From NCBI GenBank assembly GCA_036172245.1, contig JAYWIR010000187.1, positions 1 to 36,746 of the forward strand: a stretch of DNA of 36,746 nt, given 5' to 3'. This document shows positions 39-27,726 of this stretch, in pieces (the first letter of the stretch is position 1; the number at the start of each line of letters is the position of its first letter). A program made the position numbers and the translations under genes. A model generated the notes under the pieces. The model did no database searches. It worked only from the letters and a program-made list of their open reading frames with translations, and was not told the origin of the DNA. The stretch comes from Raillietiella orientalis. Its lineage: Eukaryota.

Positions 39-2800
39 TCGCCAAGGGATTCGGCGACGGGCTGAGGAACGACCGGGCATACTACCGCGCCCGTCTTTAC
101 TCTAGGACTCCCGACGTTCGACGCCTGACGTAGTATAAAGCTGGGGCTAAGCGACAGACCTGACAATCCGGGTCGGCCAGCTTGCTGGACGCCCAAGGCC
201 AGGAATGCTTAGCTCCGGCGAAAAGAAACGGCATCCTACGGGACAATTACTCCTCCTTGTACGCGCTTAGAACAACAGAGCGCGCCGTGGCGCAGCGCTT
301 TCTGCCGCAAGGCGCCCCAGCGCTACAGGAGGAGCAGACACATCAACTCGAGGAGCGTTTCTCGATGGCGGAGATCGTCTCCGCCATCGGCAAGCTCGAA
401 AAGAGAAAAGCACAAGGGGAAGACGTTCTGCCCGCGGAGTTCTACCAAGGCTTCGTGGAGGAGCTGGCCCCCCTGGTGCATCGGGTTTGCATGCTGATCC
501 GAGAACAAGGGAACGTCTTTAAATCGTTCCCGTCAGCTAGAGTACGTCTCCTGCCGAAAGGAGGAGACAATCGCAACGTAGGCAACTGCGTCTTATCACA
601 GTAGTGAATGCGGATGCGAAGTTGCTTGCCAAGCTTTGAGCTGAGCGACTGGGACGGGTGGCGGAATCCGTGGTGAGTCCGGAGCAGACATACGCTGTTC
701 CCGGACGAAGCATGGAGGCCAACCTGTTCCTCGCCAGTACATGGTGGCAGTTGCAAAAAAGCGAAGACCAGGGAGGTCAAGAGAATCCTGGAGTCTCTTC
801 TGACCAGGGATGGGACGCCCTTCATGGAAAAGCCGCCCCCGGTGCCCTTGCGATCGCAGTCGATCTGCGTAAAGCGTTCCATTGCGTCGACCAGGAACTG
901 CTTCTGGAGCTCCTGGAACGCTTGAGATTCCCGGCCGTCTTCCAGGCTTACCTGCGCTCCTGCTGGCGCTTCGCTCTAATAAACATCTCTTTCAGCGGCC
1001 GGCATGTGTACGGCGTGCCGGTTCGGCGTGGCATAAGGCAGGGTGACAGTCTGAGCCCCATGCTCTTCAGCATCTACTTCGAGCTGGTGCTGAGGGCATA
1101 CAGGGAGACTCTGGCAACCCTGCCAAGCTCGTGTCCCGGCACGCCTGCCGTGTCGGCCTACGCTGACGACCTTCTGCTCCTGCTCCCCGGGTATACCCCG
1201 GCGTCGACGCTCGAATATTTCTTTGAGTTGCTGCGTCGCGGGACGGGCCTCGAAGTAAACAGAGAGAAATCTTCCATCGTTCCAACATCACCACTACTTT
1301 TAAACAATACGGCGTGGGCCGGACGGCCGGACTGGATCCGCTTGGGGATCCCCACGGGCAGGTGCTTCAAGTACCTTGTCGTTCCGCTTGGGGACTTCTG
1401 CGTTGCAGAATCCTGGTCCGACAGTCTCCAAAAGGTGGAGTTGGCGATCGGCCCGTTCCGGAATGGCAAGTTTAACTTGCAGCAGCGGGCCGCGGTGTGT
1501 AACGCGTTCGCGGCATCCCTCCTTCGCCCCTTACTTTTTATTTGCATTGCCCCTCTCATCATACAGAGACAGACCAAAGCCCTCTTGAGGACCGCCCTTT
1601 GGGGTACAGCGTGGTCGCGAGTCCGATTGAAAGACTTGTGCGCTCTACGCAGGGATGGCGGCTTGGGCCTCCTTACGTTGGAGCGCATCCAACTACAAAC
1701 AACACTTCGAAAGTTAGCCCTTGCGGCTAGCTTATGGATGACGCCATGGTGCGTTCCGGCACGGCTCCTCGCCAGAAGAGCGACCGGTTGCGAAGGATTG
1801 TCCACGATTCTCGTGGCCTACCAGCGCAGCCTCTCCAGCTGTGACCCCGATTTGCGTCGAATGGTCGCCCAGATGAGGGGAAATACCTGGATCTCCTGCC
1901 TTCCCGCGAACTGCACTGCCTGGCTTCAGGAGTCAGCTTCCGCGTGGGCTAAGATCAACGGCACGAGCAAGGCGGAATACAACTGCCTACGACGAGGACC
2001 GTACGCCCGAACGCCGCTGCAGGATATTATCAGCACGCCCCGGAAGTTTCTGTGGGCTTCTTTCAGTCCCCTTGCCCCCGTTCTGTCCTCCCTAAAAAAC
2101 AATAGGAGCAGCAACGAGCGGGCATCGTGGGAAGTGTCCGGCCTCTTCCGATGCAGGAAAAAACCTTTAAAGGCGTGGACGACTCGAGAGCCCACGGACG
2201 CTGCCACCCCGAGCGTCCCGCCTCACGGACTTGAGCGCTGGGGAGAGCTGCTGTCAATACCTCCGGAGGAGGTGAAGTTGCCCCCAGCGTCTTGTTATTG
2301 CGACACACTCCCGTGGAAGTGGCAGGAGACGGCGTTGCTATTTCTGCACTGGAGACTGTTAAGCAGAGCACGCCTATCTCACTGGACACTGGGGAATGTG
2401 GATGCCCGCTGTGTCGAGTGCGGAGAAAGAGAAACCTTCCCTCATCTCACCCTCGAGTGTGTCGCGCTGGATGGACTCTGGAGTCGAATCTACCCAATCC
2501 TCCATCTTCCAGTAGGCGTCCCTAAGGAAATTTACCGTCGCCTCTTTCTGCGTCACGGCCTGCGCCCCGCTGCGTCTCTAGCAGTCTTCTGCTGCGTGCG
2601 CGGCATTGTGCAAAGGTGGCATGCCAGAAGAAGAGGCTTAAGATGCAGAAACGCCATCCACTGGACGACGATCTTTTTAGAGACGGCGACGAGGTGGCGT
2701 CTACCTTTCACAATAAAAACGGAACTTGACTGCATCCTTCACAGGATGCGGAGGACCGACCCAGGTGCCCAGTGATCCCTTCCGTGCCCCCCCCCTCTCC
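39..2800 (+). mobile_element. Piece B: L1/Tx1-like element, ORF2 from the post-APE linker to the C-terminus; 3' UTR truncated
   Basis: Starts at (L)AKGFGDG. Carries a Z-region (KAQGEDVLPAEFY), RT motifs and a C-terminal CVECGERETFPHLTLEC. The terminal hairpins seen in other copies are absent. Confidence 0.9.
182..2775 (+). pseudogene. Disrupted ORF2 (RT plus C-terminal CCHC zinc finger) of piece B
   Basis: ORFs 182-604 and 658-2775 contain EQTYAVPGR, VDLRKAF, GIRQGDSLSP, AYADD, FKYL and DGGLGL. There is a frameshift near 590 and stops near 131 and 637. Confidence 0.9.
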
Positions 2801-2864
2801 CCATATAACCGTTTTCACTGAGTGTCCGGCAATTTCACTCAAACCACGTTTCTTTCTCGCCCAG

Positions 2865-4763
2865 GTTCAAGTTGTGTTGCCATGGCGAGGTCACGATTGT
2901 TAACCTTCCCGAGCGTGTCTCATCCTTTCCAGAAGCCGTTTCTTGGCCCCGAGTTTTGCTGTCCCCAGCACGGTGGCACAAATCCTTGAGTGCGAAGACT
3001 CGTCGCGTTGCTTACAAGCAAGCCTCCTAGAGGGCAGGTTCAGCGCCTGGATCCCGCCCTCAGACCTCAAGGTCGCGATGGCATCGGAGGTAAGTGACAG
3101 TGATCCCTGCCCGTGCTACTTGCGACCTATTTTTAGCAAGGGGCAACAGAGAATTCCATGGGAATCCAGGCTCATGCCGATTCCTCCCTTCTGTGCTCGG
3201 TAGAGAAAACCATCCGCAGCTTGTCTGTGCAGCACAAAAAGAGGCAAGAGGACATTCAAGCATTGCTGAAGAGCTCGAAGTTGCTGCACGTGCCATCCAG
3301 AAGGGCGGCGAGAGGGCAGGAAATCAGATCGGTACGTGGACCGCCGTCGGATGTGAGACGATGGAGCGTCGCGACGCTCTCTCTTATTCGAAAATGGGGA
3401 TGTTCCAGAGGTTGGGAGTAAAGGATGGAAGCCCATCGGGGCAGAAGACAAACCACAGAAAGACGGCAGAGGATGTCCGCGCGGAACAGAGCGAGGAGGA
3501 CTTGAGGAAGCGTTGCCTGCGCATGCTCGAGGACAGCCTGGTGCAAGCAACGTGACTATCTGGCGGAGACAAGGTGGCAGTTGCGAGTCTCTGCCGTTGC
3601 TTTTCAGGAGTGCGGTCGCGGCAGGGGATGTGAGTAGCCTCCGTCAGTGGGAAGAGAAGCGCACGGCATGCGCGAATATTCTCTCGCGAGAACTCCATGA
3701 GGAGCTGAATCTAAATGCTGCCTGCTGCGCTTTGCAGGATAAGATCTCAGTAATCACGAACTCTAAGGAGGATCAGCATGGGTTGTTTGCCCAAAGGAGC
3801 ATGTTGTGGTTAGTCGGTTGCAGGTGGTCACTTCCAGTGCCTTCAGCTGTTTGCAGGAACGCAGTTTGTGCGAGAAGGAGTTGGCGGTCTTGACTTCCAA
3901 TATGCCGCAGACCATTATTTCAACCGTGGAAGAAATGCTGTGGAATGAGCTAAGATTTATGAGATTTTGGATCTCACGCATTAAGGATTGCTCAGCGAGA
4001 TTCTTGAGACTTCATTTCCCAAACATTCTTACTTTTCAACGGATGTATGTGCCTGGCATGGAATCTACTTATGAAGAGTTGCATGCTATCGAAATGGTAC
4101 AGCATCTCAGAATGCGAGTGGAAGCTCAGGATGAAAATTTTCGCAGGTTAGCACGTCTCTCCATGAATTCTTTGACACATTCTTCACAGCAATATTTGCG
4201 AGACGCAATTGGCCACTGCGATCCACCAGTCGCGAGAAATTGACGAACAAAACAGAAAGGCATCCGAGAGATTGGAAAGTATTGAGGAAAGGAAGAGACA
4301 GGTGAGGGCAATCATCGCTTTATTTCCATGTATACGTCGGTGATTTTTCCTCGTCCTTAGTGTAGCAGCTTCAACGATGGCCTCCTGGAGGAGCTGAAGC
4401 ACTTGAGAAATGCCCTGTTGTCGAAACTCCGAAGACGATGTCGACTGGGCAGTTCCCTGGTCGGCCTGCACGAATACAACCAGCTCATGCTGAAAATGTT
4501 CTATGCCTTGAGTGCGTGCAGTAGTCAAAGGTGCGTGTGCCTTTCGACGCGGGTTCATGTGATCATGGTCATCATTAGGATGAAAAGCTCTTGTTCTTTC
4601 GGGACATATGTTGGCAGCACTGCTGATGTAGGAGCGCCGGAAGAGGAACTGCAGATGTCTGTCGGACGGGCAGCCGAGAACGAGAATGAGGAACCCCGAG
4701 ATCTTTGACCACTTGAGAAAAGTTTCACAAGGATTCCTCTAGAACCGCTGCTCCATCAATAAA
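2865..4763 (+). pseudogene. Possible intron-containing host gene of unknown product, apparently disrupted
   Basis: Acceptor-like sites end at 2864, 3203, 3408 and 4360. Donor-like sites are GTAAGT 3090, GTACGT 3332 and GTGAGG 4302. Removing 3332-3408 joins ORF 3158-3421 to ORF 3094-3555 in frame. ORF 3806-4243 looks protein-like and AATAAA lies at 4758. Internal stops and frame changes are present, and no family was recognised. Confidence 0.3.
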
Positions 4764-7700
4764 GTTAAATGACGTTTGAAACTTGTGCCGAAAGGTGACT
4801 CGTTTTGTCACACCAACACGCCCAAGCTGCTCCGTGCACCTGCATGCTCCCTCGAACGACCAAAATAGGTCTACGGAACACAACGGGGAAATCCAATGTG
4901 GCGTCTACAATGGTGGTTGAATGCTGCGATCTCGAGAAGGCCATGAGCCAGCCGTTTCTCTCAGAGTCACTACCGGGAAGACCACGCCGCTCGCGGCTGG
5001 TGCTTCGGCTTCACCCGATCCATTCTTCTGGTCACTGTGGCGCGGAGATGGACAGCTCTGTCTGCGGCGCTATATGTATTTTGTATTTGGTCCAGCGACG
5101 CACGGACGGACGTCCTAGGGTCCTTGAGCCATTTGCTTTCAACCGCACGCAGCGTGTTCTCCGGCAGACTACGTTACCCATGGTCGGTCTTGTAGCCAAC
5201 CTCCGGTCTTTCCACATTCCGGACTACAGCAGCTATTACCTCCTTGCAGGGTCGAGGGATGGTCAGTGGACGCACTTTCTGTCGGTTCGCGGTTGTCTCT
5301 TATTGTTCCGGTCGGCACTTCCTCCTTTCACGTTTGCCATGTAGGGCAGACGAACTCTGAAGCTAGTTTTAAGGAGTAGCGGTGCTACTGCGTGTCGTGA
5401 AACGACTGAATAGATTCGCAGTTCACGCTCAGCAGGGAGCGCGGTGTCCTGGTGCTTTTCGATGTTTTCAAGGCGACCGTCTCCTGCAGCAAGCGCTTCT
5501 TCGGATTTCTGGGCTCAGCTCTCTTTCGCTTTTGGTGCGCGCACGTGGAGTATGCGTGGCTTTTTATTGCAGCTCCTTGCTGCTCCTTACCCTTTTAACC
5601 CTTGTGCTCTTGAGGTTTTCTTTGCCTCGATCCCCTCGGTCTGATGCGTCTGCAGGGACACCGAAATAAAAGGTCAAGAGGGTAGTAACGGGAACCCGGA
5701 AGAGTGCCTGCACGTTGCTCGCCTCGCTTCAGGTCGCGATGTGCTGGTGGCCAGTTAGCGAGCATGGATACACCAAATGCGTAAAGGCTGTTCTGCTAAA
5801 GGCCTTCCGCTCTTTCCGTCCCTACCTACCTCTTCCCTTCCTCTGTGTGACGTGCGCTGTCCACGGCTGATTTCATAGAATAAAAACCATCCGAACAAGA
5901 AGGAACGCCCTCCAATCGAGAGGAGGTCTCCTCATAGAGGTCACGACGTTTGCACACTAGAAGGCGCAGCTTAGGTGTCGCCGTATACGACCTCCATGAA
6001 GACCATGGCAGTCATAAGTGCCCGCTAGAGGCAGGCGGATGCGTGTTTCATCCAGCCCCTGCGCGCCTATCCTTAGAATGCGTTCCCTAAGCGCTCATGC
6101 GCCGGAGCTTCTCTGGAAGGTTTGCGCTCCCCGACCGCCTTGAGGGGAAGCGTCGAGCAAGAGACCTGGGGAGGTGGGAGGAGAGCGCAGGATTTCGGAA
6201 TACCAAGCGGGGTAAAGAATGTCGAGATCGATGAAGGAGGGAGGGACGCGTTGCCTGCGAAATGGTGAAGTTCAAATCGCCAACGGCAGCCTGCCGAATG
6301 GTCACTGTGCGACCCCAGCCTGCACTTCGCAGCCTGTACGAGCGCGATGGACCGCAACCAAGTGCGTGGCATGGGTTGGCTGGCGAGCTGGCAAAGGGAG
6401 CTTTCTCTCGTCGGTGAGCGGTCGCGAAAAGCACCCCTCACCGCGAGTTGGCATCGGATAGGTTCGCAACACCGAGCTGGGCGATGCAGGATCCACCGCA
6501 ACATTTGCAGGAAAAATCAGTGCGATGTCTTTTCGTCGTCCAGTGCGGTGGCTTCGAACATCAGGATTATTTTCCCTTTTTTCCCTCATTTATCTTCCTA
6601 TACTTGTCTTGCAGAAAGAGCTGCTTGCTTTGAATCCTTTGTGTTGGTCAGCATGCGCCCTTTCTTTGGGGGTGGTCTGCGTTGCTTCATTGGATTCCCT
6701 GCCCTCGTTGTTGTTTTTCGAACCGGAAAGTTACGAATGCTTGGGCTCCTTTCTCTTGCTGCCTCCGAAGGAATTCTTAGTATCTGCTCGAAAAGAACCT
6801 CGGAGCTTCCTGAAAGATGTTGATCCACTGTACACCGCGGCTGCGCGGGCGTGGCTTCGGAATTCTCTTCTAATAGCCTACAAGAATCGCCTCGGGAACT
6901 TTATCTCCTGGGAGGTGGAGCTCATCAGATGGAAACGTTCTGTGTTGGCGGTACGTGAGTCGCAGTAGCGAACTCTGTAGAAGGAATGCTGTTTCCGCTT
7001 ACCACGTACTCCATCAAGGTACCAATCGCCTACATAAAGTGCCAATTAGAGTTACAATTAAAACCGTTTATTTACACCACATCAAAAAAAATATTTTCGT
7101 GTTTTCCAGACATGTATTCAATTATTTTGGTATTTATATTTAGCTATTCTCCTCTCTATAATGCTTTTCAAATCTTTGGAATAAGCAAACGATGAAAAAC
7201 ATAAAAATATTCAGAGGCGAACTTTTCGATAGACCACCTTAGAGTTCTAACCAGTAACTACCACCCTCTACTTAGTGCACCTCCTAAAATGGCCAAACGA
7301 TTTCAGGGGAAATGTAACAATTCGAAAACTGCGTTGCTGTTTAAGTGGCTGAACTCCCAGGCAGCATAATTTTATGCAGAGAGTAATCATGGAATTCTTT
7401 CAGTGTTCTTCTTGGGTGTGGTTTAATTTTTGGATAAAAATGAAGACAACGCCTTCTTATATGGATGTGGAGAAATTGCTCTCTAATGCAGGACCTCTTA
7501 AGAAGAGATTGGAGCCAACATTACACTTTTCCGCCTGCAGCGAGAAGCTCCGTCGCCGTTGCAAAGGCAGCGGCGGATAACGGAGCGCTCCTAGACGAGG
7601 CAAAGCTCTAATCACACGTAGTTCAAGGCTACAGGCTTGAGCTTTCCACAATGTCAGTGCCTTGCATAGGGACAGGACGGGTGACGAGCTGTGGAGCGAG

Positions 7701-8159
7701 CTGGAAAGCGTCGGGTTCCGATGTTACGACCTCCTAGCTTTAATGACAGTGAGCATGCTCAAGCAGAGTGAAGTGCACTGGAATGATGCGGCCCTCTGTT
7801 CAGCGTCTGCTCCAAACCCCCTCGAAAATCAGGGATAAGCAATTCGTTTTCGGCTCTGGAACAGTCCCTTGTGGTCTAACTCTCAGTTACTTCGCCGGAA
7901 ATCGCCAACCACGATCCAATTGTAGCACTCGAGGTCCTCGACGTAGGCAGTCGCATTCCGCCTCGCTCGTCACTTTGATCTTATCCCAATCGGAGACTGA
8001 TTCCTGGAGTCCAGTCCGCAGAGATGCAGGAGATCCACGGATTGTCCCTCAACAGGGCAACCAAGTCCAGCAGCTGAAACCTACAATCGTTCAGGATACG
8101 GTCTTTGGCTAACAGGATTGAGGTCAATCCGAAACAGCCAGTAGACCTGTGACCGAGGA

Positions 8160-8720
8160 GTGGTCCCGCGTAAAGGAAGGGAGACTTTTACAACTTCCAC
8201 CAGGAATACAAGATGGCGGAGATTGTCTCCACCATGCCAACATTTAAAAAAAAAAAAGCACCAGCGGAAGACGGTCTACCAGCTGAATTCTATCAACACA
8301 TCGCGACAAAGCTGCTTCCCCTGGGGCACAAATTATGTATGCTAATGCGTGATCTGTCCAACTCGTTACGGTCAGCTAGAGTACGTCTCCTCACTGAGGG
8401 AGGAGACTTGCGCAACATTGGCAACGGGCGTTCCATCACTGTAGTGAATGCATACGCAAAGTTGCTCGCTCAACTCTGAACTGAGCGCCTGGGACGGGTA
8501 GCAGAATCTGCAGTTAGTCCGTAACAGACATACGCTGTTCCCGGAAGAACCATGAGGGCCAACCTGTTCCTCGCCAGCACCTTCCGTCAGATGTAACACC
8601 AAGAAGGTCAGATAGGTCGAGAGAGTCCTGGACTGTCCACTGGCCGGGAAAGGTAAGCCGGAGGGGAGTTGCGGCGCCTGGAGCCATCGCGGTTGCAGTC
8701 CATTTGCGCAAAGCTTTCGA
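8160..8720 (+). mobile_element. Piece C: highly degraded ORF2/RT fragment ending at the KAFD motif
   Basis: Translates as MAEIVS..KKKKAPAEDGLPAEFY..SARVRLL..ITVVNAYAKLLA, then TYAVPGRTM and VAVHLRKAFD, with many stops. Confidence 0.85.
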
Positions 8721-8785
8721 TTTTTAAACGGGTTTTCCCGGGGCATTTATTCAAAAAATAAAGTGCGCAAGTACTTCAGGAGTTA
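8721..8785 (-). mobile_element. Piece D: 3' terminus stub of an element
   Basis: The minus strand reads TTTATTTTTTGAATAAATGCCCCGGGAAAACCCGTTTAAAAA, matching the family 3' end (AATAAA, GC hairpin, A5). The right boundary is approximate. Confidence 0.75.
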
Positions 8786-8789
8786 CACC

Positions 8790-11700
8790 GCGAAGGAAAT
8801 TAGAGGAGGAGATGCGACTTGCTCTGCTTTAACCATGAAAGTAGGGGCATCCGCCCCCACGGAATCCGGGGCACTTGCTCCATTAAAATCGATGGCGACC
8901 GCCCCTTCGCGACCCTCTTCGCCAGCGGCGAAGAGTTGGAGTGCCGTCGTTGCTGCGCCATCCGCGGCTGCAGTAGCGGAGCAGACTGCCTACAAGGGCA
9001 GCAGCTACAAACCGTTGCTGATCTATAGGTAGGCAGTGTGTTGGACGAGAAAATTGCACGCTTCTTTGAAATGGAGCTGCAAAGACTGAATGTGAGGGAG
9101 CAAGACCTCGAGGGCCCATCCGTCCTTAGTAGGAGACAGCAAGTTGAGCTGACATGCAAAGAGGCAAGTCTTGTGCAGCGCCTGCTGAACAGTCCCATTA
9201 CGGTGAACGGTCGCAGGATCTTCCCTGTGACGGAGGACCGCTCCGTCGTGGTCCACCTCACGGGCGTAACACTACGAATGGAGAAAACCAGCGTCCATGA
9301 GGAGTTGTCAAAACATAGTACTGTGCACGCGTATTGGGCCAAACCCAATGTCTTCCGAACGTACGAAAGGCTATTCAGTGGAATGCCCGCAGCCCGCGTC
9401 AAACTACCAGAGAATGGTGGGCTTCCCCACAAACAAAATATCGGCGAAGAAAATGTCGATGCTTGGTACGTGGAAAAGCTCATGTATTGTGGCCATTGCC
9501 ATGCTACAGGGAGCTTAAAAAAACGGTGACCTCACATCCAATGCCACTTATGTGGTAATAAGAACCACATCCGCAAGGTGTGCTCCAAAAGGGAAATACT
9601 GTCACCTCCCGCTGCGAAAAAGGCAAAGGGGAAACGCACGGGAGAAGCGAATATCCTGGAACAGGCTGGGAAAAACCAGATGCCAGACCCTATGCCCTCC
9701 CAAGAAACCTCATTTAAGAGCATTCCCGACGAAGCTGGTGACAGCGAAGGCTGGCAGACGGTACAGCCACGAAGAAAACCCGGTAGTCCCAAACGAAACA
9801 CGGTGAAATCAAAAAGGCAGTGCGAAGAACCCTACCGCGAAAATCTCTGCGCATGATTGATGAAATTAGAGCGTGTGGAGGCAGTCGATGCCACCACCGG
9901 GAGAACGATTCCCCCCTCGCGTCCGGGAAAGCCGCGACGGTCAATGCCGAACCCTCTGGGGCTACAGAGAAGGAACCGCGCGCCGCGCTCGACGCGATCG
10001 AGGAGGCCGCCTTCTAGCAGGCGGTGGAAGAACTCGCGGCTGAACTGCAAGGCCGTGAGAGGAACTCGCGGAAAGATTTACGAAGGCCGGCCGCGAGGAA
10101 GGCTCCGGATGCAGATGAGGCCCATCCGGACTTCAGAAGTGCGTCTTCTTCAGCGGAGGCCCCACCAAATAAGACGGGACGTAATTCTTAGAACCCCAGG
10201 AGGCGCATCCGGATCCAGAAGGAGGTGGATGAACCGGGTTCCGAGTGGGAAGCCGGCAGCATGCGAGGCAAGGGTGGGAATCTCTTATTTCCCGACACCG
10301 TGCAGCTGGCGACCCCCATGGAATGGGAAGTTTGGATGGGTAAAGCCCCCTTCCTCTGCATGGCCCTGACGACGATTCGGCCTCCATGGAAGAGAAAGAA
10401 GCAATGCGCCACGCACCCCCTTTTCCATCCGTCCCTTTCGACCAGGTGGCGGGAACCGCACTGCCAAGTTCCCAGGAATAACCCCTGGGCTCGCCTGTCG
10501 CCGAAGGATCCGCGTGGCCTGTTGGAATGTCAACGGGCTGCGCGACGACGGCAACAGGCGAGATACAGCCGAAACCCTGCGAGAATTCGACATGGCGCTT
10601 CTGCAGGAGATCCACGTGATCACTGCAAGAGACGTCGAGGAGATCAAGAGGATCGCAGGAAGTCGGTTGTATTGGCAATGCGGCGACCGCCACACCTGCG
10701 GTGTCGCGTTCTTCCTGAAGCCAGCCGTCGACGCCCACGTGAGGAACGTACGCTTCGATGACAACGGTCGTGTTGGACAGATGATTCTATGCTGGCCTGA
10801 CACGATCGATCTCATCGTTACCAACGTGCATGCTCCAAGCGGCAGCAGAAAAGAACTCAGTTTTTCCAGTACCTGGAGCGTGACTGGCTGACGAATGCAG
10901 GAGTGCGCAAGGCCCACCTGATAGCCGGGGACTTTAACTTCCGCCTGCTCTCAGGTGCGTGCTGCACGCATAAGAACGTGCCAATCGAGTTGTGCTCTGC
11001 CATGAGCGCGCGCAAGTTGACGGAGGGACTTTCGGAAATGGAGAACAGCATCGACCACGTTTTCCTCGACCACGACATGTGTACTCATGTCGGTATACAA
11101 GGAAGGCTCCTGTCGACGCTGTCCGACCATTTCCGTCTGATGTTCGATGTCTGGCCACGCAATAAAGGACCTCCATCCAGGGCGTGGCGTCTACCGGGGG
11201 ATTGGACGAGACTCCCAAGTGCGGCGGAACAACTCCGCCAATTCCTGAGAGGCGTCACCGTCGAGGATTGGGACGTTTTCAAGCGTTCGGTCCGCGAGTT
11301 CTGTGAGGAGATTCCCCTAGGGCGCATACCCTCCGAGTTTGGGGAAGGAACTCGCAACCAAAGGGCTTATCTATACGCCCGTCGTTACGCGAGAACCCCC
11401 AACGTCCGTCGTCTGGCCGACTACCGAGCCGGGGCTGAGCGCCAAGCTTGGCAGTCCGGGCCGCCCACCCTGCTGGACGCCCAGGACCGCGAACACTCGG
11501 CCCCCTCAGCGACTCGACACATGCTGAGAAAATTTTATTTCTCCCTGTATGCCAGGCCGCCTCCCGAGCAGGACACCTCGCGACTGTTGCTCCCGGAAAA
11601 AGCCCCGGTCACAGGGGAGGAAGAGAAAGAAAGCCTCGACGTGCCTTTTACAGCCGGTGAAATCGTCACCGCGATAAAAGGGCTCAAGAGGAGGAAGACA

Positions 11701-12173
11701 CCAGGGGAAGACAGCCTGCCCGCGGAGTTTTTTCAAAGCTGCGCAGCAGAGTTAACCCCTTTGGTGCACACATTGACACAGCTGATCCGGGAAGAAGGCG
11801 ACGTTCCCGCCTCGTTCCGGTCAGCTAGGATGAGGCTCCTTCCTAAGGGAGGAGACCTCCGTAAGCTAACCAACTGGCGTCCGATCACTGTCGTGAATAC
11901 GGACGTCTAGTTGGTGGCGAAACTGTGGGCTGCGCGGCTCGGACAGGTAGCCGAATCCGCAATTAGTCCGGAGCAGACATACGCTGTTCCTGGGCGAAGT
12001 ATGGAGGCTAACCTGTTCTTCGCCAGCACATGGTTCCATGCGCAACAAGAAAATAAAGACCGCAAGGGATCTCTCGGCTACCCCAATATAAGGGTGACCT
12101 CTGGTCAGGGTAGGGACAACCAAACGGGTAAGATTGCCCTAGCGATCACAGTTGCTCTTCATAAAGCATTCGA
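8790..12173 (+). mobile_element. Piece E: element with degraded ORF1 and ORF2 (APE plus start of RT), cut off at KAFD
   Basis: ORF1: KSWSAVVAAP, CGHCHATGSLKKR, second knuckle near 9540. APE: WNVNG, LQE, GDFN, IDH, SDH. RT start: NWRPITVVN, KAFD. Confidence 0.9.
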
Positions 12174-14911
12174 TTTGCACCCGGATTTTGCCGAAGCGTT
12201 TATTGTAACAATAAACTTTAACAAAGACGTAAAGTGGCTGGATCATTGCTACAGCCACGCACGAAGAAACACAGAGCCTGCCAAATCACCGGTCCGCAGA
12301 CCCAAACGGTCCACAACGGCAGCAGGAGGAAGCTGGAAAAACAAAAACAAAACAAAAAAGAAAAGAAAAGGTGGGGAAGAACGGAAAGGGATAACTGTAG
12401 CTGGTGGGGTCGTTGCATCCTTTGCAGGATGCCGGCTAGCTCCTTGTGTAATGCTGGATCCAGGTGGTGCCATTTCGACGCTCTCCTCAGGAAATGGGAG
12501 GCTGGCAGGATAACACAATAGTCGCGTTGTCCTCCTGTAGCCTTGCTCCAGGCGGCGACGATCCCGCGAAGGCAGTGAAGGGCTGCTAACGAGGCTGATG
12601 GCCGAAGGGCGTAGGCAACGAAGAGGGCTTTCAGAGCGTCCCTGAGGTTGCCCCATGGGATGCCGATGGCCGCGGCAAAGCGGAACCAAAGGGGCCGGAG
12701 GGCAACACAATCCACTAGCAGGTGGGAAGGGACTCCCGTTCCCCACACCTGACGCAATTAAGGTCCACCGCTGCCCAGGTCCAGTATTGTCGGCGGGCGT
12801 TACAAGGACGTCCTCCGTGCTGAGACAAGAGAGCCGACTCCTGTTATTTTAAGAGGAGGGTGGAGGTGTTAATTAGTAACGGAAGCCACTTGAAACGTTC
12901 GATGGGAACGACGAACAGCGCGCCTCAGCGAAGAAGTCCATTGGAAGGCGTACTCGGGGTCGCAGCGTCTGTTAACTGGCCCGTCTTCCACTCTCCTATC
13001 TTCTTCTCCTTCCCGGAGATTGTTACTGTAACCTCCCACTTCGCCGCAACATCGCTGTCCAGATCTTCCATCAGGGAAGGCAGAGAAGCAGCGAAAGGGG
13101 TTCTTCCTGCGCACGCTCTCTTCTTTGGATCCTCCAGGATCTCGCGGAGCGTGCAACTTCTGTAACCCCCAAACAGGAACCTTCGTTCCTGTTATGAGCG
13201 TTGCATGCCGAACTGTCCCCACGTTCGAACTGTTTCCTGCAACCAGGCACTACCGTTTAAAGGGCGAAAGGAGACCAATCCTGGGTTTTTCCGGTAAAGC
13301 GCAGCCAACCTCCGTAGCTGAAGTCCGCATCGGTTGACGCGGCGACGGAGTGCAAGAAACGACGACAGTCCCGTATTGCAGGTGGCTTGCTGGAGAAGGA
13401 GACGTTCAGGGACGCACAAACAGGTGCACCACAACTCTGGAGCGAGTGCCGACAATCGGAACTGGAGCTGAAGCTCCAGCGGCTCCAGCGTCAGGAGGCC
13501 CAGACCACCGTAACGACGAGGAGCGCACAAGTCCTTTAAGCGGAATCGGGCCCTAACGTTGCCTTAAGAAGCGATACGAAGGAGGTACTGTGTCCGCTTT
13601 TAAAATCTCTCTGTGAAAGGGCAAACAAAAAGCGGGGGGCAAAGGAGAGGAGCCGCGAACGTGTTCCAAACCGCGGCCCGTTCAGAAAGGAAAAACCTGT
13701 TGTCTCCGAACGGGCCCATCGCCGTCTCTACTTTTTGGAGGCAGCCGGACCACGCTTTTGCAGGGGAGTAGTCCCCCAACGGCACACCAAAGTACTTAAA
13801 GTACCTCATTGTGGGGATCCCCAAACGGACCCAGTCCTGCTGCCCTGCCCGCGCCGCACTTACTGGCATCACGGACGACTTCGCCCTGTTCAACGTAAGT
13901 CCGCTTCCTCGATGCAGCAGGTCGAAGAAACCTCGACCACCGAAGCCAAGGTGGAAATAGGAAGCAGCAGCAGAAGGTCGTCCGCGTACGCTGTAACGGC
14001 CAGCGTACCGGCACAGTCGTGAGGCAGGTGCGCCAGAGTTCCCCTGTACGCTCTCAGTACCAACTCAAAGTAGGTGCTGAAGAGGAAGGGGCTCAGGCTG
14101 TCTCCCTGAGGGATCCCACGCCGCACGGGTACGCTGTGCACGGTCTGTTCGCTGAAAAAAACGTTGATAAGCGCGCCGCGTCAGCTGGAGCGCAGATAGG
14201 CCACTGATGAGGCCGGGAAGCCCAAGCGTTCCAAAAGCTCCAGCAGGAGATTCTGGTCGACGCTGTCGAATGCTTTACGCAAGTTGACAGCGACCGCAAG
14301 TGCTCCCTCCTCCATCCGACCATCCGTCGCATGACTGACGGACTCACCGGAATTCCCGGTGCGCATCAAGCTCCTTTATTGTTAAAGCTCTAGCCAGGTA
14401 GAAGCGTGGAAGAGTTTCGCCTCCATGCTTTGCCAGGAAACAGCATATGTCTGTTCCGGGCTGATGAAGATGTTGCCAACCCGTCCCAGACGCTTTGTCC
14501 AAACCTTAGCCAGCAACTGGACGTCCGATTCACTATTGTGATAAGACACCAGTAGTTCATGCTCCTCAGATCTCCTCCCTTAGGGAGGGGCCGCACCTTT
14601 GCCGAACGTAACAAGGCGGGAACGTCACCTGTCTCGCGCATCAGCAAGAGGAGTTGCTGTACCAGGGGGGTAAGCTCAGCCGCGAAAGTTCGGCAAAACT
14701 CCGCGGGCAGACCGTCCTCCCCTGGAGCCTTGCGCCTCTTGAGATTTTCGATGGCCGAGAGGATCTCGTCCATCGTGAAAGGCTCGTCGAAGGTCTTTCT
14801 TTCCTCCTCCCCGATAGCAGGAGCTCCTTCCGGAAGCAGGAGTCGAGAGACGTTCCTCTTTGGAGGTGCCCTGGCATACAGAAAGGAAGAGTATCTCCGC
14901 AGCAGGCCGCC

Positions 14912-15015
14912 GATTTGGGCGGGTGAAGAGTGCTTGTGGCCCTGATCGTCCAGCAAGCTGGCGGATATGGGTGCGTGAAGAGTGCTCCTGGCCCTGATTG
15001 TCCAGCAAGCTGGCC
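14912..15015. repeat. 52-bp imperfect tandem duplication within piece F
   Basis: 14912-14963 and 14964-15015 both read GATWTGGGYGSGTGAAGAGTGCT..TGGCCCTGATYGTCCAGCAAGCTGGC. The short repeat CCGATTTGG brackets the duplication. Confidence 0.85.
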
Positions 15016-15555
15016 GATTTGGAATGCCAGGCTTGCCTCTCGGCTCCCGCTTTGTATTCCGCCAGCCTGCGGATTTCGGGATGCGTTGCGGAACGACGGG
15101 CCTGCAGATTAGCTCGTTCGTTACGCACCCGGTCCCAAAATCCGTAGGTAGGTGGTGCAGAGAAAACTGGTCGCAGAACTCCTGGACCGACCGCTTCAAG
15201 CGGTCCCAATCCTGGAGTGTCCACAGCCTGAAGCTCCGTATGAACGTGCGGAGATGTTCCGCCGCGTTCGGGAGCTTCAGCTAGTCCCCTGGCAAACGCC
15301 ACGCTGAAGATGGGGGGCCCCTGTCGCGCGGATAGATTTCAATCACGATTGGTCGATGGTCGGACAACTCGCACAGCAACTTGCAGCGCCTGCCCACACG
15401 AGTTCACAGGTGCTCGTCAAGCAACAAGTGATCGATGTTGTCCTCCATCCCTGGTACACTGGCCAACAAATTACATGTGTGCACCGCCATGCACACCTCG
15501 TTGACCATCTCACGCTCGCGATTCTGCCCATCTGGTTTTAGGCGAACGTTGAAAT

Positions 15556-15761
15556 TTTCCACTTGGACATGCAGGGACGTTTTTTGACATAAACAAGCTG
15601 GAGAAAATTGTTCTCAGCTCTCGACTCTGAAAACATGCAGCGGAGATTCAATCTTGGCACGCAGGCCAGAAAAACGGAAGAACATGGACGACTGAGGGGA
15701 GTCCAAAAAAAAAAACAAAAAAAAAAAAAATTATGAATGGGAGGAGTGAGCCAGGGTTGAA
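15556..15761 (-). mobile_element. Piece G: 206-bp 3'-UTR-only insertion in the APE of piece F, with a 13-bp TSD
   Basis: Flanked by CGAACGTTGAAAT (15543-15555) and CGAACTTTGAAAT (15762-15774), with one mismatch. It has a T-tract and a degenerate terminus (AAAAAACGTCCCTGCATGTCCAAGT). Removing it restores GDF(N/K)VRL. Confidence 0.8.
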
Positions 15762-15891
15762 CGAACTTTGAAATCGCCTGCAACTAGATGGGCATTCCGC
15801 ACGCCTACTTCGGTCAGCCATTAGCGCCGGAGGGCAAGGAAAATCAGTTTCCTCGCCCTCCTGTTCATCAGGTCCGCGCCGGTCGTTCACA

Positions 15892-15928
15892 CCCGGATGT
15901 GCCGGGGCATTTATTTCTTAGAAATAAA
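15892..15928 (-). terminator. Element 3' terminus: TTTATT/AATAAA hairpin followed by a CCCGG-N5-CCGGG hairpin (representative copy)
   Basis: Equivalent motifs occur at 8729-8762, 12180-12216, 20269-20304, 27732-27764, 30572-30601 and 35783-35819. Terminator function is inferred. Confidence 0.7.
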
Positions 15929-16141
15929 ATAACAGAAAAAATGTCGCGTGGCGAACCCAAAGGTTCACCACTCCAAAACAGCTTGCTGGTTACCGGCTCC
16001 GTGCCGTAGAGGTCCTTCCGATGCGCGGGGATGGGAAATAAAGAAAAACAAAAAGAAACAAAAAGTTCAAATGTGGGGGGGACCAAATGTTGTAGGGGTG
16101 GGAGGGCGGGGAAGGGATCACGGTGCGCGTGGAGAGGTCCT

Positions 16142-19100
16142 CTAGATCCTATTCAGGATCCGCACAAGCTGAGTCCTTTCAGCGCCCAAGTGGCGCCACT
16201 TGCAGACACTTCGCGCGAAAACGCGAGTCCAGTGTAAGGCGTTGCCGGTTGGCTGACGCCTTCTTCTGATGGCGTTCCAAGCCGCCACTATTCCTCTGAT
16301 GCAGCAGAGGACTGCTACACTAGCGGGCGGGGACAAGGCGTCACTACAGAAGAGGCGCCTGAAAACGTCCTTTGGGCCGAATCCGCGCAAGTCCAGGATC
16401 GCCGCGAGACGATCCCATAAAGGGCGGATGGCACTGCACTCGATGAGAAGGTGGGGGAAGGTCTCTTTTTCCCCGCACCGGTCACAATAAGGATCCACAG
16501 CCCCCCGGGTTGTGTGATGAAGGCGTGCTTTGAATGGAAGTCCCCAGAAAACCACAAGCAACGCCACATCCTGCCATTTCAGGGGGAGGGATGCACTGTT
16601 CCAGGACGCTGGGGGCCACTTCATCTCCTCCGGAGATAGTCCGAGTAGCTCGCCCCAGCGTCGAATTCCGTTGGGCGGGACACTCGGCGTCGCAGCGTCA
16701 GCTGGCTGCCGAGATGTCCACGCCTTTATCGATTGTGTCCTGCCGCCTATAGTGCAGGACACGGTCCATTTCCCCTGCTCGCTACTGTCCCTGGCATTCA
16801 CAAGGAAGGGCAGCACTGGGGCGAGGGGGGTTATCAAGGCCCACAGAAGCTTGTCGTGGGACTGCACGATCTCCTGCAGCGTCCAGCGGGCGTGCCTTTT
16901 CAGGCAAGTGTTTTTTGTGCCCGCCGGAACGTGAAGCTTTTCCCAAGTGGAGACTGTCTCGTGCAACCAGGCGGAGTAGTTCCCTGGGAGGCAGGAGATC
17001 CAGGCGTTCTCCCGAACCGCAACAAAGATGCGTCGCAGCATAGAGCCACAGTATGGTCTTCTGCAGACGCGCGCAGACAGAAACGACAAAAGTCCGCCGA
17101 TTCCGCAGGCTCGTTGGGCCAGGAGGCGTACTGGAACGCACTAAGGCGTGTCCCACAATTCCGCCGCAAGGGCGAGAGTCCTAAACTGAAATTGTACTTC
17201 CATGCGCTCCAGCGTAAGTAAGCCAAGTCCACCGTCCTTACGTGGAGCGCACAAGTCTTTGAGCCTCACACGGGACCTCCCTTTGCCCCAAAGGACTGTC
17301 CTCAGGAGGCCCGCTGCTCGTTTTCGAATAAAATAAGGGGCGGGGCAAACAAAAAGTAGGGGGCGAAGGAGGGGAGCCGCAAACGCGTTCCACACCGCGG
17401 CCCGTTCCTGCAAGTAGAACATGCCTTCTTGGAACGGACCGATCGCCAACGCTGTTTTTTGGAGACGGTGGGACCAGGCTTCTGCTGCGCAGAAGTCCCC
17501 CAACGGTACGCCGAGGTACTTGAAGCACCTGCTTGTGGAAATCCTCAGGCGGATCCAGTCCGACCGTCCAGCCCACGCCGAACCGACGAAGACCATGGAC
17601 GACTTTGCCCTGTTCACCTCCAATCCCGTTCCGCGGCGCAGCAACTCGAAGAAGTCCTCGCGTGCACTCGCCGGGGTGGACCCGGGAAGCAGCAGCAGAA
17701 GATCGTCTGCATAGGCCGACACGGCAGGCGTGCCGGCACACGAGCTCGGCAGGGTTGCCAGAGTTACCCTGTATGCCCTCAGCACCAACTCGAAGTAGAT
17801 GCTGAAGAGCAAGAGGCTCAGGCTGTCACCCTGCCGGATGCCGCGGCGTACGGGCACGCCGTACACGTGCCGGCCGCTGAAACCGATATTGATTGACGCG
17901 TTGCGCCAGCAGGAGCGCAGGTAAGATTGAAGCACGGCAGGGAAACCCATGCGTTCCAGGAGCTCCAGAAGGAGATCCTGGTCGACGCAGTCGAATGCTT
18001 TGTGCAAATCGACCGCGACGGCAAAGGCTCCCGCCGAGTCCATCCCACCCTCTGCCCGATCTTCTTGGTCAGAGGGGGCGCGAGGCTCCCTTGACCGTCC
18101 TGTGCAACGCGTTGTCGCAACTGCCACCATGAGCTGGCGAGGAGCAGGTTGGCCTCCATGGTTCGTCCGGGAACAGCATAGGTCTGCTCGGGACTCACCA
18201 CGGAAGCGGCCACCCGCCCCAAACGCTCAGCCCACAACTTGGCATACAACTTTGCGTCCGCATTCACTACTGTGATGGGACGCCAGTTGCCAATGTTGCG
18301 TAAGTCTCCTGACTTCGGCAGGAGACGTACTTTAGCTGACCGGAACGAGGCGGTAACTTCGCCGTGTTCGCGGATCAGCGCACTTAACCTGAGCACCAGG
18401 GGGGCCAGCTCTGGCGCGAAGCGATGGTAAAACTCCGCGGGCAGGCCGTCCTCCCCTGGTGCCTTCCTTCTCTTGAGCCTGTTGATGGCGGAGATGATCT
18501 CCGCCATCGTGAACGGTTCCGCCAATCTGGAACGGTCCTCCTCCTTGAGCGCGGGAGTGCCATCCGGCAGCAGGCGCTGCGCAAAATGGCGCTCAGGTGT
18601 TAGTGGCGCGTACAAGGAGGAATAAAACTCCCGCACGATGCGGCTTACCTGGGCTGGGCTGGAGCGTTCTTGGCCCTGATGATCCAGCAGGCAGGCCGAG
18701 CCTGACTGCCAGGCCTGCCTCTCCGCCTCAGCCTTGAATTCAGCCAGGCGACGGACGTCGGGACGCCGGGAATAACGGCGCGCCTGGAGGTACGCCCGCT
18801 CGTTCCTGACACCCTCACCGAAGCCCGGCGGAAGACGTTCCAGCGGAAACTGGTCGCAAAACTCACGGACTGAGCACTTCATTTCGTCCCAGTCCGCGAG
18901 CGTCTGAAGCTGGAATCCTCGCAGGAAACAGCGTAGATGTTCCGCCGCTCCTGCGAGGCGCAACCAATCCCCTGGCAGGCGCCATGTTTTCAGGGGAGGG
19001 CCCTTATTGCGCGGATGTAACTCGAGCACGAGCCGTGGATGGTCGGACAGCTCTGCCGGGAGCGTTCCACGAGTTCCCACCCGCGTGCACAGGTGGTTGT

Positions 19101-19710
19101 CGAGGAACATGTGGTCGATGTTCCGATCTCTCCCGGCATCGCCGGCCAACAAGTTGCGCGCATGCACGGCTGCGCACATCTCGTTGACCAGCTGTGCTCG
19201 TCCGCTGGGCGCACCTGCCAGCAGGCGGAGATTGAAATCGCCCGCAATGAGGTGCGCCCTTCGCACGCCTGCTTCGGCCAACCAGTCTCGCCGCAAGGTT
19301 TCGAAGAACGCAGTGCGTTCCTCGGCCCTGTGGCTGCTCACCGGAGCGTTCAGGTTCGTGACCACGAGGTCGATCGAGTCGGACCACTTGAACACAAGCT
19401 GCCCAACTCGACCATCCCCGTCGAACCGTGCACTGCGCAGTGAGTTGTCGACGGTTGGCTTTAGCAGAAAGGCCACTCCGCAGGAGTTGTCCGTTCCGTT
19501 CCTCCACAGTAGCCGCCCTCCCGCGATTCTTTCGATTTCCTGGACATCTCCCGGTCGGAGAACGTGCGTCTCTTGCAGGAGCACCAGGTCGAAATCTCGC
19601 AGTATGGCGGCTACATCTCGCCTCTTTCCGTCGTCGCGCAACCCGTTGACATTCCAACAGGTGATGCGCAAGCGGCGGCAGAAGGCGAGCCCACGCACTG
19701 ATGCGTTTAT
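16142..19710 (-). pseudogene. ORF2 (APE-RT-CCHC) of element H, with two frameshifts
   Basis: ORFs 17818-19698, 17141-18130 and 16142-17089 tile the protein. Motifs: WNVNG, GDFN, SDH, KAFD, QGDSLS, YADD, CDRCGEKETFPHLLIEC. Confidence 0.92.
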
Positions 19711-20262
19711 TGTGGGGTGGAGGCGGCCTCCTCCCGTGCGGGAGGCGGCTTGTTGGCGGCCGTGACGACGGTCGGCTGCTCACACGGGAGCACGTCGTCC
19801 ACAGCGACTTCCATGGGGCTGGCTTCCGAGACACGGATCGGAGAAGGCTCGCGTGACGCGACGCACATTGCCTCCTCCTCCGTGCCCGAGGACATGGCCT
19901 CCTCCACCTGCGGAGGGGCGACCCGTCTCGGGCAACCGGTCTTCTTGCCAGCCTTCCTCTTCGGCACGGCTGCGGAAGTAGAACAACCGGCTTCGGTTTC
20001 GGACTCGGAATTTTCCGGGCCCTTCACCGTTGCCGGTCGTCTCAAGGCCTTCTTCTCGGCCTTGGCAGGCTGCTGTAACATGGCTGCCAGCTCTTCCGCG
20101 GCCTGCGCGAAGGTCGCGTCCGTTATGCGCGCCGCCTCCTCGCTTTCCGCACCGACGCTTTGCGCAGGCGCGACAGGGGCGGCTTCATCGATCGGCGCGC
20201 AGACGTCCTTCGCTGGCAATGCCGGAACGGCATTGTCGTCAGCTGATGGTGACGTCACTGCG
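19707..20262 (-). pseudogene. C-terminal part of ORF1 of element H
   Basis: After removing I and one TSD copy, it continues in frame from the N-terminal part (..PEPVVPAVT|SPSADDN..). It contains FAQAAEELAA, as the other ORF1s do. Confidence 0.9.
20253..20262. repeat. Left target-site duplication of element I (CGTCACTGCG)
   Basis: The identical 10-mer lies at 25907-25916. This copy directly abuts T5, the element's A5 tail. Confidence 0.95.
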
Positions 20263-20510
20263 TTTTTACCCGGATATGCCGGGGCATTTATTTAAAAAAA
20301 TAAAAATACATGTAATTTTCGGGTGAAGAACCTGATGGTTCAGCACAAAGCAGCTTGCTTCTTGCCGGTTCTAAACCGGCGAGGTCCTTCCAACGCGCGG
20401 GAACGGGAAGAAAAAAACAAAACAAAGAAAAAAATGTAAAAGTTGGAGGGAGTACTTATGTTTGGGAAGGGAGGGCGGGAAGGGAATCACATTGCACGCT
20501 TAAAGGTCCT

Positions 20511-23500: not shown

Positions 23501-24080
23501 TCCCGGTATCACCGGCCAACAAGATGCGCGCATTCATTGCTGCGCACAACTCGTTGACCAGCTGTGCTCGTCTGTTGGGTGCACCTGCTAGCAGGCGGAG
23601 ATTGAAATCGCCCGCAATGAGGTGCGCCTTCCGTACGCCTGCTTTAGCCAGCCAGTCTCGCCGCAGGGATTCGAGGAACGCAGTACGTTCCTCGGCCCCG
23701 TGGTTGCTCACTGGCGCGTATATGTTCGTCACAACGAGGTCGATCGATTCGGACCACTTGAGAACAAGTTGTCCAACTCGACCGTCCCCGTCGAAGCGAA
23801 CGCTACGCAGAGAGTTTTCGACTGCCGGCTTCAGCAGAAAGGCCACTCCGCAGGAGTAGTCTGTTCCGTTCCTCCACAGTAGCCGCCCTCCTGTGATTCT
23901 TTCGAAATCCTGGCCTGCTTCTGTTGTGAGCACGTGAGTCTCTTGCAGTAGGGCCAGGTCGAAGTTTCGCAGAATGGCGGCTACGTCTCGCCTGTTCCCG
24001 TCGCTGCTCAACCCGTTGACGTTCCAACAGGTTATTCGCAAGCGGCTAGAGGAGGCGAGTCCACGCAATGGTGTTGTTAT
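20511..24080 (-). pseudogene. ORF2 (APE-RT-CCHC, about 1189 codons) of element I, with two nonsense codons
   Basis: ORFs 22548-24068, 20994-22529 and 20511-20993 share one frame, separated by TAG at 22548-22550 and 20994-20996. Confidence 0.93.
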
Positions 24081-25822: not shown

Positions 25823-25906
25823 TTCTGCCTTCAAAACACCGCCCAAACACCACACAACCTACAACCTCGCGCTAAAACGCAGGAGCAGCAAAAGAAACAC
25901 GTCTGC

Positions 25907-25916
25907 CGTCACTGCG
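25907..25916. repeat. Right target-site duplication of element I (CGTCACTGCG)
   Basis: Identical to 20253-20262. Confidence 0.95.
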
Positions 25917-27028: not shown

Positions 27029-27138
27029 CCCTGCCCAGGAACAACCGCTCAACCCTGAAAACTCCGAAAACACTGGCGAGAAAAACGCGGAGCACCACAA
27101 AAGCACGTCCACCCTCTCAGGAGCGCCGTCGCAAGTCC

Positions 27139-27726
27139 CGGCCAGCTGATTCTCAGGTGGTCCGATACGATCGATTTCTTCGTAACAAATCTGTAAGCTC
27201 CGAGCGGTACTAGCAGGTACCCGGAACGTAAGGCGTTCCTAGAAACCCTGAAGCGCGACTGATTGGTGGAAGCGAACGTGCTCATGGCTCACCTGATAGC
27301 GGAAGACCACAGTTTCCGCAAGCTATCAGGTGAGCCACTCGCACAGGAACGGGCGGCTAACGAGTTGTGCGTCGCCATGCGCACGCGCAACTTGTTAGGG
27401 GATCTCCCGCAAATGGTCAGCAGCATCTAACACGTCTTCCTGGACGTCGACCTGTGATCACGGGTCGGCAAACGGGGCAAAGTTGCGTCGGCACTGTCTG
27501 ACCATTTATGGTTGATATTCTAGGTGTAACCACGCGACAAGGACCCCCTATTTAGCGCGTGCCGTCTGCCTGCGCACTGGACGCGGCTCAGGTGCAAAGG
27601 AACCCCCTTGCGTATTCCTGAGAGGCGTCACCCTCCGCAATCTGAAGGATTGCAACCTATTTAAGGCCTCGGTCCGCGAGTTTTCCGAGGAGTTCCGCTT
27701 GCACCGCTCGCCCCGGGGATTTGGGG
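27139..27726 (+). mobile_element. Piece J: degraded APE fragment ending at HRSPRGFG
   Basis: Translates as GQLILRWSDTID..HLIA..HVFLD..LSDH..LRGVTLRNL..SVREFSEEFRLHRSPRGFG, with several stops. Confidence 0.85.

Follow-up and report, generated by a model that had tools for sequence, protein, structure and literature searches.

Two independent antisense junctions at one base of the reverse transcriptase gene in an L1-type LINE family of Raillietiella orientalis

How do two diverged copies of a transposable element come to end at the same base of their reverse transcriptase (RT) gene, each joined there to the reverse-complemented end of another member of its family? The question is raised by a 36,746-nucleotide stretch of Raillietiella orientalis DNA (contig JAYWIR010000187.1; the whole stretch is the window in what follows). 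In its 36.7 kb we mapped ~14 pieces of one family of long interspersed elements (LINEs), an element of ~5.6 kb. The mapping used the open reading frames (ORFs) and the DNA of H, the most intact copy, as reference (5643 nt), and positions preceded by "H" are coordinates of that copy. The family layout is an ORF1 with a CCHC knuckle and an ORF2 with an apurinic/apyrimidinic-type endonuclease (APE), RT and a weak zf-RVT match. Identity among the pieces is 55–79% in the regions compared, and 88–91% in the young pair G and H.

Two junctions at one base of the RT codons

Four adjoining pieces, designated like all others by letters, form the two junctions:

8201–8720, + strand: copy C, H3017–3546, ORF2 residues ~407–583 (tblastn, blastn to H, translation)
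8721 to ~8768, − strand: D, a 3′ terminus only (AATAAA, CGGG/CCCG hairpin, A5 tail), its size corrected to just ~45 nt; right boundary approximate
~8769–12173, + strand: copy E, H ~80–3546 (blastn to H, tblastn, translation), beginning directly after D with a slightly 5′-truncated start (~H80)
12174–15885, − strand: copy F, H ~2177 to the end

At the C/D junction, positions 8710–8720 read AAAGCTTTCGA and are followed by TTTTT (8721–8725) and then AAACGGGTTTTCCCGGGGCATTTATTC; at E/F, positions 12163–12173 read AAAGCATTCGA and are followed by TTT (12174–12176) and GCACCCGGATTTTGCCGAAGCGTTTATTG. Both 11-mers are in frame on the + strand and encode K-A-F-D of RT motif A. Alignment to H places the end of C and the end of E at H3546, after the second base (A) of the Asp codon, with a 1-nt ambiguity if the lost codon was GAT. 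What follows each break is a family 3′ terminus in reverse complement: D (8722–8762) matches the 3′ end of H at 81% over 42 nt, and the 3′ untranslated region (UTR) of F matches that of N at 68.75% over 752 nt. The initial annotation of this DNA had claimed these junction sequences, an identical breakpoint in two hosts, and inserted termini that differ from each other. The sequences are present as it described them in both C/D and E/F, the two breaks fall at the same phosphodiester, and D and F mismatch at 19/49 aligned positions.

Of the 11 pattern matches returned by a search for the KAFD codons, eight occupy the corresponding place in the RT of A, C, E, F, G, H, K and L, so that two of eight copies are broken there. 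The six other copies read on through GAC/GTC/CAT, TGC(AGC/TGT) GTC GAC, codons for C/S-V/E-D-Q. Their unbroken sites are:

14265–14276, − strand: F, with an 11-mer identical to that of E
start 18001, − strand: G
start 22370, − strand: H
start 29831, − strand: K
start 32676, − strand: L
start 871, + strand: A

Across the 517 nt common to eight copies, C and E share 62.9% identity. Nearest to C are A (72.7%), G (70.0%) and H (69.4%), and nearest to E are L (71.8%) and K (70.5%). A maximum-likelihood tree grouped E with K and L (support 97/95), and an approximately unbiased (AU) test rejected a C+E clade (lnL difference 37.4, p-AU 6.5e-5). Because C and E thus belong to different lineages, the C/D and E/F composites do not stem from one event, and the earlier view that the hosts differ and the events are independent stands. 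That view had reckoned with descent of both composites from one old duplicated ancestor, a candidate that the tree refutes. The idea of an ancient composite of RT fragment and antisense terminus, later duplicated and diverged in place, draws on the facts that C and E align and that D and F are homologous termini (30/49 identical), but C and E are not sisters, the sequences within 40 nt of the junctions are no more alike than elsewhere, and D runs ~45 nt where F runs 3.7 kb. We consider such an origin extremely improbable. The last 48 nt of D are too short to resolve its own lineage (D–H 33/48 vs D–F 30/49).

We next calculated how readily such a coincidence would arise. With random placement, the probability that any two of the seven 3′ junctions in the window coincide is 0.0019 for position and strand and 0.0037 for position only, rising to 0.023 when only CG-adjacent sites are eligible. 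The initial annotation had judged a chance double hit unlikely, and these values (0.0019–0.023) bear it out. The region is highly repetitive, which speaks for an assembly artefact, but the joined partners, a sense RT gene and an antisense 3′ terminus, have no common sequence to mislead an assembler, and apart from G/H the copies are 55–79% alike in the regions compared; pure coincidence faces a chance of 0.002–0.02. Artefact or coincidence is in our estimate very improbable, and we conclude that the double hit is solid and non-random.

Family 3′ termini and a second recurrent breakpoint

In the family terminus, AATAAA is accompanied by a 5-bp CCCGG/CCGGG hairpin and a short A-rich tail; G, H, L and N carry this terminus too. 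Seven termini are recognisable in the window, all on the − strand:

8751, 12204, 15915, 20292, 27757, 30595 and 35806, − strand: first bases of AATAAA in the seven termini

The terminal hairpin has five conserved pairs and no compensatory changes, so that its structure is neither supported nor refuted. D and F have complete termini whose tails, A5 in D (and in H) and A3 in F, resemble those elsewhere in the family, as expected from initiation at the RNA 3′ end. How the family integrates can be read from copy H and its host:

15886–20252 and 25907–27110, − strand: G/I, one full-length copy interrupted by H
20263–25906, − strand: H, the full-length reference, 5643–5644 nt, A5 tail

H sits in ORF1 of G/I between the two repeats of a perfect 10-bp target duplication, CGCAGTGACG (20253–20262 and 25907–25916). 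When H and one duplicate are removed in silico, the host ORF1 reads through the joint as an open frame of 625 codons; ORF2 of H has a single in-frame stop. This copy demonstrates that the family performs canonical target-primed reverse transcription (TPRT), and the hallmarks of that process, an A-rich 3′ tail, variable 5′ truncation and target-site duplication, are all found in the family; aligned to H, copies F, K, L, J and C are 5′-truncated.

The flank after the tail starts with CG or TCG in five of the seven termini (H, G, L, F and D), the exceptions being K and N. It is CG in H, G and L (TCG under an alternative reading of the L tail) and TCG in D and F. CG occurs 464 times per 5643 nt (8%). 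That five of seven tails lie 1–2 bases from a CG, against this frequency, makes D and F look like ordinary 3′ junctions, with the nick in the sense strand of C and E.

The KAFD position is not the only breakpoint that recurs. Site 1, GGATTCGG^ (H2710–2728, codons for L-A-K/Q-G-F-G), is used three times, and the pieces concerned are:

1–36, − strand: X, 5′ end only, M-type (reverse complement)
37–2808, + strand: A, H2710–5450
27112–27724, + strand: J, H ~2100–2728
27725 to ~30560, − strand: K, H ~2800 to the end
~30560–33512, − strand: L, H2710 to the end
33513–35774, + strand: M, H1–2640
27707–27724, + strand: left half of site 1, where J ends CTCGCCCCGGGGATTTGG (an end also given as ...GGATTTGG), followed by the reverse complement of the 3′ terminus of K (from 27725)
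33495–33512, − strand: right half of site 1, where L starts ACTCGCCCAGGGATTCGG and adjoins the full-length 5′ end of antisense M (33513 on, + strand)
1–54, + strand: second right half of site 1, where 1–36 is the reverse complement of an M-type 5′ end (X) and A starts ACTCGCCAAGGGATTCGG from 37

Copies A and L start ACTCGCC(A/C)AGGGATTCGG, each abutting the 5′ end of an antisense M-type copy. Both right halves (2/2) begin at the same base, at CTCGCC, 17 nt before the sole left-half end, an overlap such as a target duplication leaves and one that suggests a 17-nt duplication at this site. The insert sides are alike, X and M being identical at 33/36 positions, and the host sides A and L are identical at 18/19 positions in the duplicated stretch and at 61/100 beyond it; the tree places A and L in different clades. 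The junction occurs in both absolute orientations, as X(−) in A(+) and as M(+) in L(−). All three copies that carry GGGATTYGG at site 1 (A, L and J) are broken there, and E, F, G and H have another sequence and are intact. Site 1 and the KAFD site have the core ATTCGR^ in common. The initial annotation had noted a site 1 with a core loosely like that of the KAFD site, and site 1 proves real, with halves that overlap by 17 nt as a target-site duplication would. Judged from these sequences, site 1 behaves as a reused target.

Proposed nick-site reuse and its alternatives

We favour, at a probability of about 0.5, the reading that C/D and E/F are two separate, ordinary TPRT 3′ junctions at which a preferred nick site in conserved RT codons was reused. 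The sense (+) strand of an older copy would have been nicked between A and C/T of the Asp codon (...GCWTTCGA^Y), and the free 3′-OH would have served as primer on another member's RNA, with reverse transcription starting at its short A-tail, leaving the newcomer antisense and its tail reading as a T-run. The APE would have a moderate nick preference, for a CG 1–2 bases before the nick and for ATTCGR^, the core common to site 1. The nick sequence, as part of the codons for RT motif A, would be retained in all copies, and nearly all DNA of the region is family DNA; together with the nick preference, these two points would account for the repeated use of one base. TTCGA occurs just 6 + 6 times per full element, and a 5–6 bp preference acting within a family-only cluster would yield site reuse without any evolved recognition of kin. 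The junctions, their independence, the tail anatomy, the canonical TPRT of H and the CG signature are direct observations; from them we infer that D and F entered by nicks in C and E rather than in the reverse order, and that the recurrence is due to endonuclease preference.

A number of findings weigh against nick-site reuse. None of the five + strand pieces carries a 3′ terminus, and 7/7 termini lie on the − strand. The 11-mer stands unbroken in identical form in F, G and H, with a near match in K, and GSWTTYGR has 22 matches in the window, 17 of them at no junction. Neither a right half (H3547 onward) nor a target duplication for the KAFD site is present in the window, and G/I, young and full-length, lacks a clean target duplication. 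Nesting needs ~10 successive left-to-right entries (B<C<D<E<F<J<K<L<M<N), the sole exits from that order being H in G/I and a small retroposon. Two head-to-head joints have nearly equal element coordinates: the end of M is at H2640, against a start at H2710 for its host L (33503–33512 with 35760–35774), and F starts at ~H2177 beside the J start at ~H2100 (15860–15890 with 27111–27140). Both fit an inversion geometry better and are left unexplained by nesting. Nor is decay ranked from right to left as nesting predicts: F has 7 stops (in 538 codons) vs the single in-frame stop in ORF2 of E, and private changes at otherwise invariant codon positions 1 + 2 are 0.137 in C, 0.10 in E, 0.11–0.13 in F and 0.137 in J. 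This decay measure (private substitutions and stops) is non-monotonic and confounded by tree shape, and was not used to choose between models.

The distribution of termini would be accounted for by a 5′ inversion resembling twin priming, the L1 inversion mechanism reportedly put forward by Ostertag and Kazazian in 2001, in which both parts come from one RNA and do not overlap. The window would then be a polar, head-to-tail chain of − strand insertions whose + pieces (C, E, J and M) are inverted 5′ segments. The 3′-OH at the end of a neighbour's A-tail (F or D) would prime internally on the incoming RNA at KAFD, E with D and C with B would each be one insertion, and the repeated KAFD start would arise from homology between a target already ending in KAFD and the motif in the incoming RNA. 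Read along the − strand, each + piece is indeed followed by a direct piece (M–L, J–G/I or F, E–D, C–B), with the inverted 5′ segment immediately before a direct 3′ segment that has a tail. The 70-nt gap from the end of M to the start of L is classic for twin priming, decay is similar within pairs (heavy in C/B and J/F, light in M/L), all five + pieces lack 3′ termini, and nested right halves become unnecessary. Yet the inverted and direct parts of E/D are separated by a gap of ~2 kb, and J and F overlap by ~550 nt at 55.7% likeness and cannot stem from one RNA. X/A and M/L are the same junction with the inverted and direct roles swapped, which nesting explains and a polar chain does not; because the site 1 junction occurs in both orientations, such a chain is disfavoured. 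X is M-type, but A groups with G/H, whose 5′ ends differ. After KAFD the six intact copies have no U-run and at most 1–2 nt of microhomology, the 17-nt overlap of the site 1 halves is left unexplained, and it would be mere chance that the TCG after the D and F tails agrees with the CG signature of H, G and L. One RNA, adjacent coordinates and one flanking duplication are not what these pairs present: no flanking duplication was seen for them in the window, and only M/L, with its 70-nt gap, fits. We hold inversion to be a serious rival, though an unlikely source of the two junctions. Ectopic recombination between inverted copies was rejected, as it would join equal element coordinates and not a tail to KAFD.

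The recurrence could also go beyond a nick preference. The initial annotation had taken it as endonuclease specificity for the family's own RT gene, which goes further than the data, given the four of seven junctions elsewhere, the unbroken 11-mer in F, G and H and the missing right halves; self-targeting by the family cannot be proved from one window, and the data point to a favoured cutting site. In its strongest form the proposal would be a dedicated kin-targeting, in which the ribonucleoprotein (RNP) singles out long stretches of the family's own ORF2, at the KAFD codons and at the GFG site. It would do so by means of a protein that reads a long recognition site, or by base-pairing between its RNA and the antisense strand of copies already resident, and antisense insertion would be an evolved safe-haven and cluster-building strategy. 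Five breakpoints at two sites with a common core speak for it, and both site 1 right halves starting at the same base imply a fixed stagger. The 18/19 identity of A and L over the duplicated 19 nt includes third codon positions, and a likeness confined to that stretch is as expected if a long recognition site selects the copies that are hit. The events at recurrent sites are moreover all antisense, and three clearly sense insertions (H, G/I and L) are at non-recurrent sites. Targeting of existing copies is reported for Zepp-type LINEs in the passages covered (PMC8226300). On the other side, C and E are alike upstream of the nick only in the 11 conserved nt, the copies carrying the same 11-mer were spared as described above, most visible 3′ junctions lie elsewhere, and there are just two KAFD events in one window. 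We regard a dedicated strategy of this kind as decidedly doubtful, and nick-site reuse remains the reading that we prefer.

Architecture of the window and comparison with known LINEs

In the reading that we favour, the window is part of a cluster built by copies of a single L1-type LINE family nesting in one another, with several diverged lineages present side by side. Family pieces abut one another across it, except for one non-family stretch, and GC content is 45–65% across 1-kb windows. The remaining features are:

~2810–7900: non-family stretch
~7929–8184, − strand: B, heavily decayed
35775–36746, − strand: N, 3′ part

No family homology was detectable in the non-family stretch beyond decayed traces at 6079–6258 and 7929–8184 (the latter being B), and none of nine long ORFs at 3094–6968 had a Pfam match (0/9). 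Copies G and H, in long − strand frames, have the order APE then RT, with matches to PF03372 (Exo_endo_phos) at 59 and 54.4 bits (cut-off 24.5) and to PF00078 (RVT_1) at up to 70 bits (cut-off 29.6). An N-terminal APE followed by RT is the arrangement of L1-clade LINEs. The zf-RVT matches, at 22.5–24.1 bits in A and G, are under the cut-off of 27.5, and zf-CCHC was matched in one ORF1 only, that of copy I (24.1 bits, cut-off 20.8); a Pfam search of the ORF1 of H for zf-CCHC gave no match.

Among the hosts and inserts of the KAFD junctions, C is decayed (3 stops per 143 codons). E comprises a 5′ UTR from ~H80, ORF1 at 9182–10263 and ORF2 residues 16–583 (10487–12173), and F an A3 tail, a ~740-nt 3′ UTR and ORF2 from ~H2177 to the end. 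Within F, a 212-bp insert (15556–15767, + strand) ends in a ~27-nt A-run with one C inside. The insert is dissimilar to the LINE family and has the look of a SINE (short interspersed element) or processed-RNA retroposon mobilised by poly(A)-dependent machinery, in contrast to the family's own tails of just 2–5 A. A purine-rich low-complexity tract (GAAAA/CAAAA repeats on the + strand, T/C-rich in the element sense) occupies the same place of the 3′ UTR in F, K and N (12330–12370, 27860–27900 and 35930–35975, + strand). Copy A breaks off at 2808, without its last ~190 nt and terminus. The flanks of G/I (15881–15890 and 27111–27131) have a gapped resemblance only, CGACGGCGC...CCTGAGAGGG vs CGACCGGCGCGGACCTGATGAACAGGAGGG. 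The L/K boundary (30553–30567) is ambiguous: either the L terminus ends GGGTGGCA and K sequence TCGCCGGG follows, or there is a second hairpin arm ending GGGTTTGAA, an option that resembles the native ORF2 sequence of K at that place.

Protein searches returned one relative at 65% identity (P0001), which reads through KAFD, all others being at ≤39%. The nearest named proteins are from land-plant L1 elements (22–32% identity), no named algal element was among the matches, and a protein atlas gave generic RT clusters only. A metagenome scan with tightened alignment found 14 loci at 35–47% identity, all of distant families and uninformative on this one; 12 of the 14 match ORF2, and seven run through the KAFD position while none ends there.

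Target-specific APE-type LINEs such as the Tx1 group, R1 and TRAS/SART nick a defined sequence in a conserved multicopy target, leave a duplication of constant length, and build arrays by re-insertion. The identical start of the site 1 right halves (2/2) recalls them. Here, unlike in those systems, the target would be the element's own coding sequence and not a host gene or another transposon, site use is partial (two of eight copies are broken at KAFD, and of the seven visible 3′ junctions three fall at one of the two recurrent sites, the other four elsewhere), and the tails are without target-derived sequence. Nearly all copies residing in one target is thus not what we found.

Zepp is said, going by the title of Yamamoto 2003, to lie at Chlorella chromosome ends. 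Head-to-tail terminal arrays of telomeric LINEs, as described in a partly covered source for HeT-A/TART of Drosophila (PMC6581046), resemble the window in that the tails here all point one way and each borders on the upstream end of the unit that follows. The window is set apart by its inverted sense fragments and by the duplication-flanked internal H, which are not features of simple end addition. No telomeric repeats were noticed in the window, in which no search was aimed at them.

The closest known system would be the self-nesting Zepp/ZeppL. In the passages covered, these green-algal L1-clade LINEs are described as all but confined to clusters of nested copies; the clusters are put down to insertion into copies already present, and have been either proposed or shown to mark centromeres (PMC3446292, PMC8226300, PMC11005252, 10.1101/2022.06.16.496473, 10.1101/2025.03.28.645958). 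Compared by those partial descriptions only, the likeness lies in an L1-type LINE with nested, often 5′-truncated copies in family-only clusters, as in the ~14 pieces of this window; the difference is that no base-level target in the element's own RT gene is described for Zepp/ZeppL in the same passages. No self-target site was described in the literature searched, which is weak evidence, since the primary Zepp descriptions (Higashiyama 1997, Noutoshi 1998, Yamamoto 2003) were not covered.

The passages of this literature covered mention targeting of existing copies, or centromeric hot spots, and no more; they do not explain by what means Zepp and other cluster-forming LINEs locate their own kind and so build centromere-like repeat islands. 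A reproducible nick site in the family's own most conserved codons would, if true, offer a concrete mechanism, combining an endonuclease preference with a target conserved by selection on RT, and would add a natural case of a site-defined APE endonuclease. A more speculative possibility, which we think unlikely, is that the family is a self-homing LINE. Its RNP would recognise conserved parts of its own ORF2, namely the KAFD codons and, ~820 nt upstream of them, the GFG site, and antisense insertion with a fixed stagger would follow there. The incoming sense RNA may assist by pairing with the resident antisense strand, the sense strand then lying open to nicking. If true, self-homing would by itself build and maintain family-only clusters comparable to the centromere-marking ones of some green algae. 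Should the recurrence instead be a side effect of inversion at integration, it documents a mode of rearrangement in this family that is both unusual and frequent. Either way, the two sites provide simple sequence probes for a genome-wide test.

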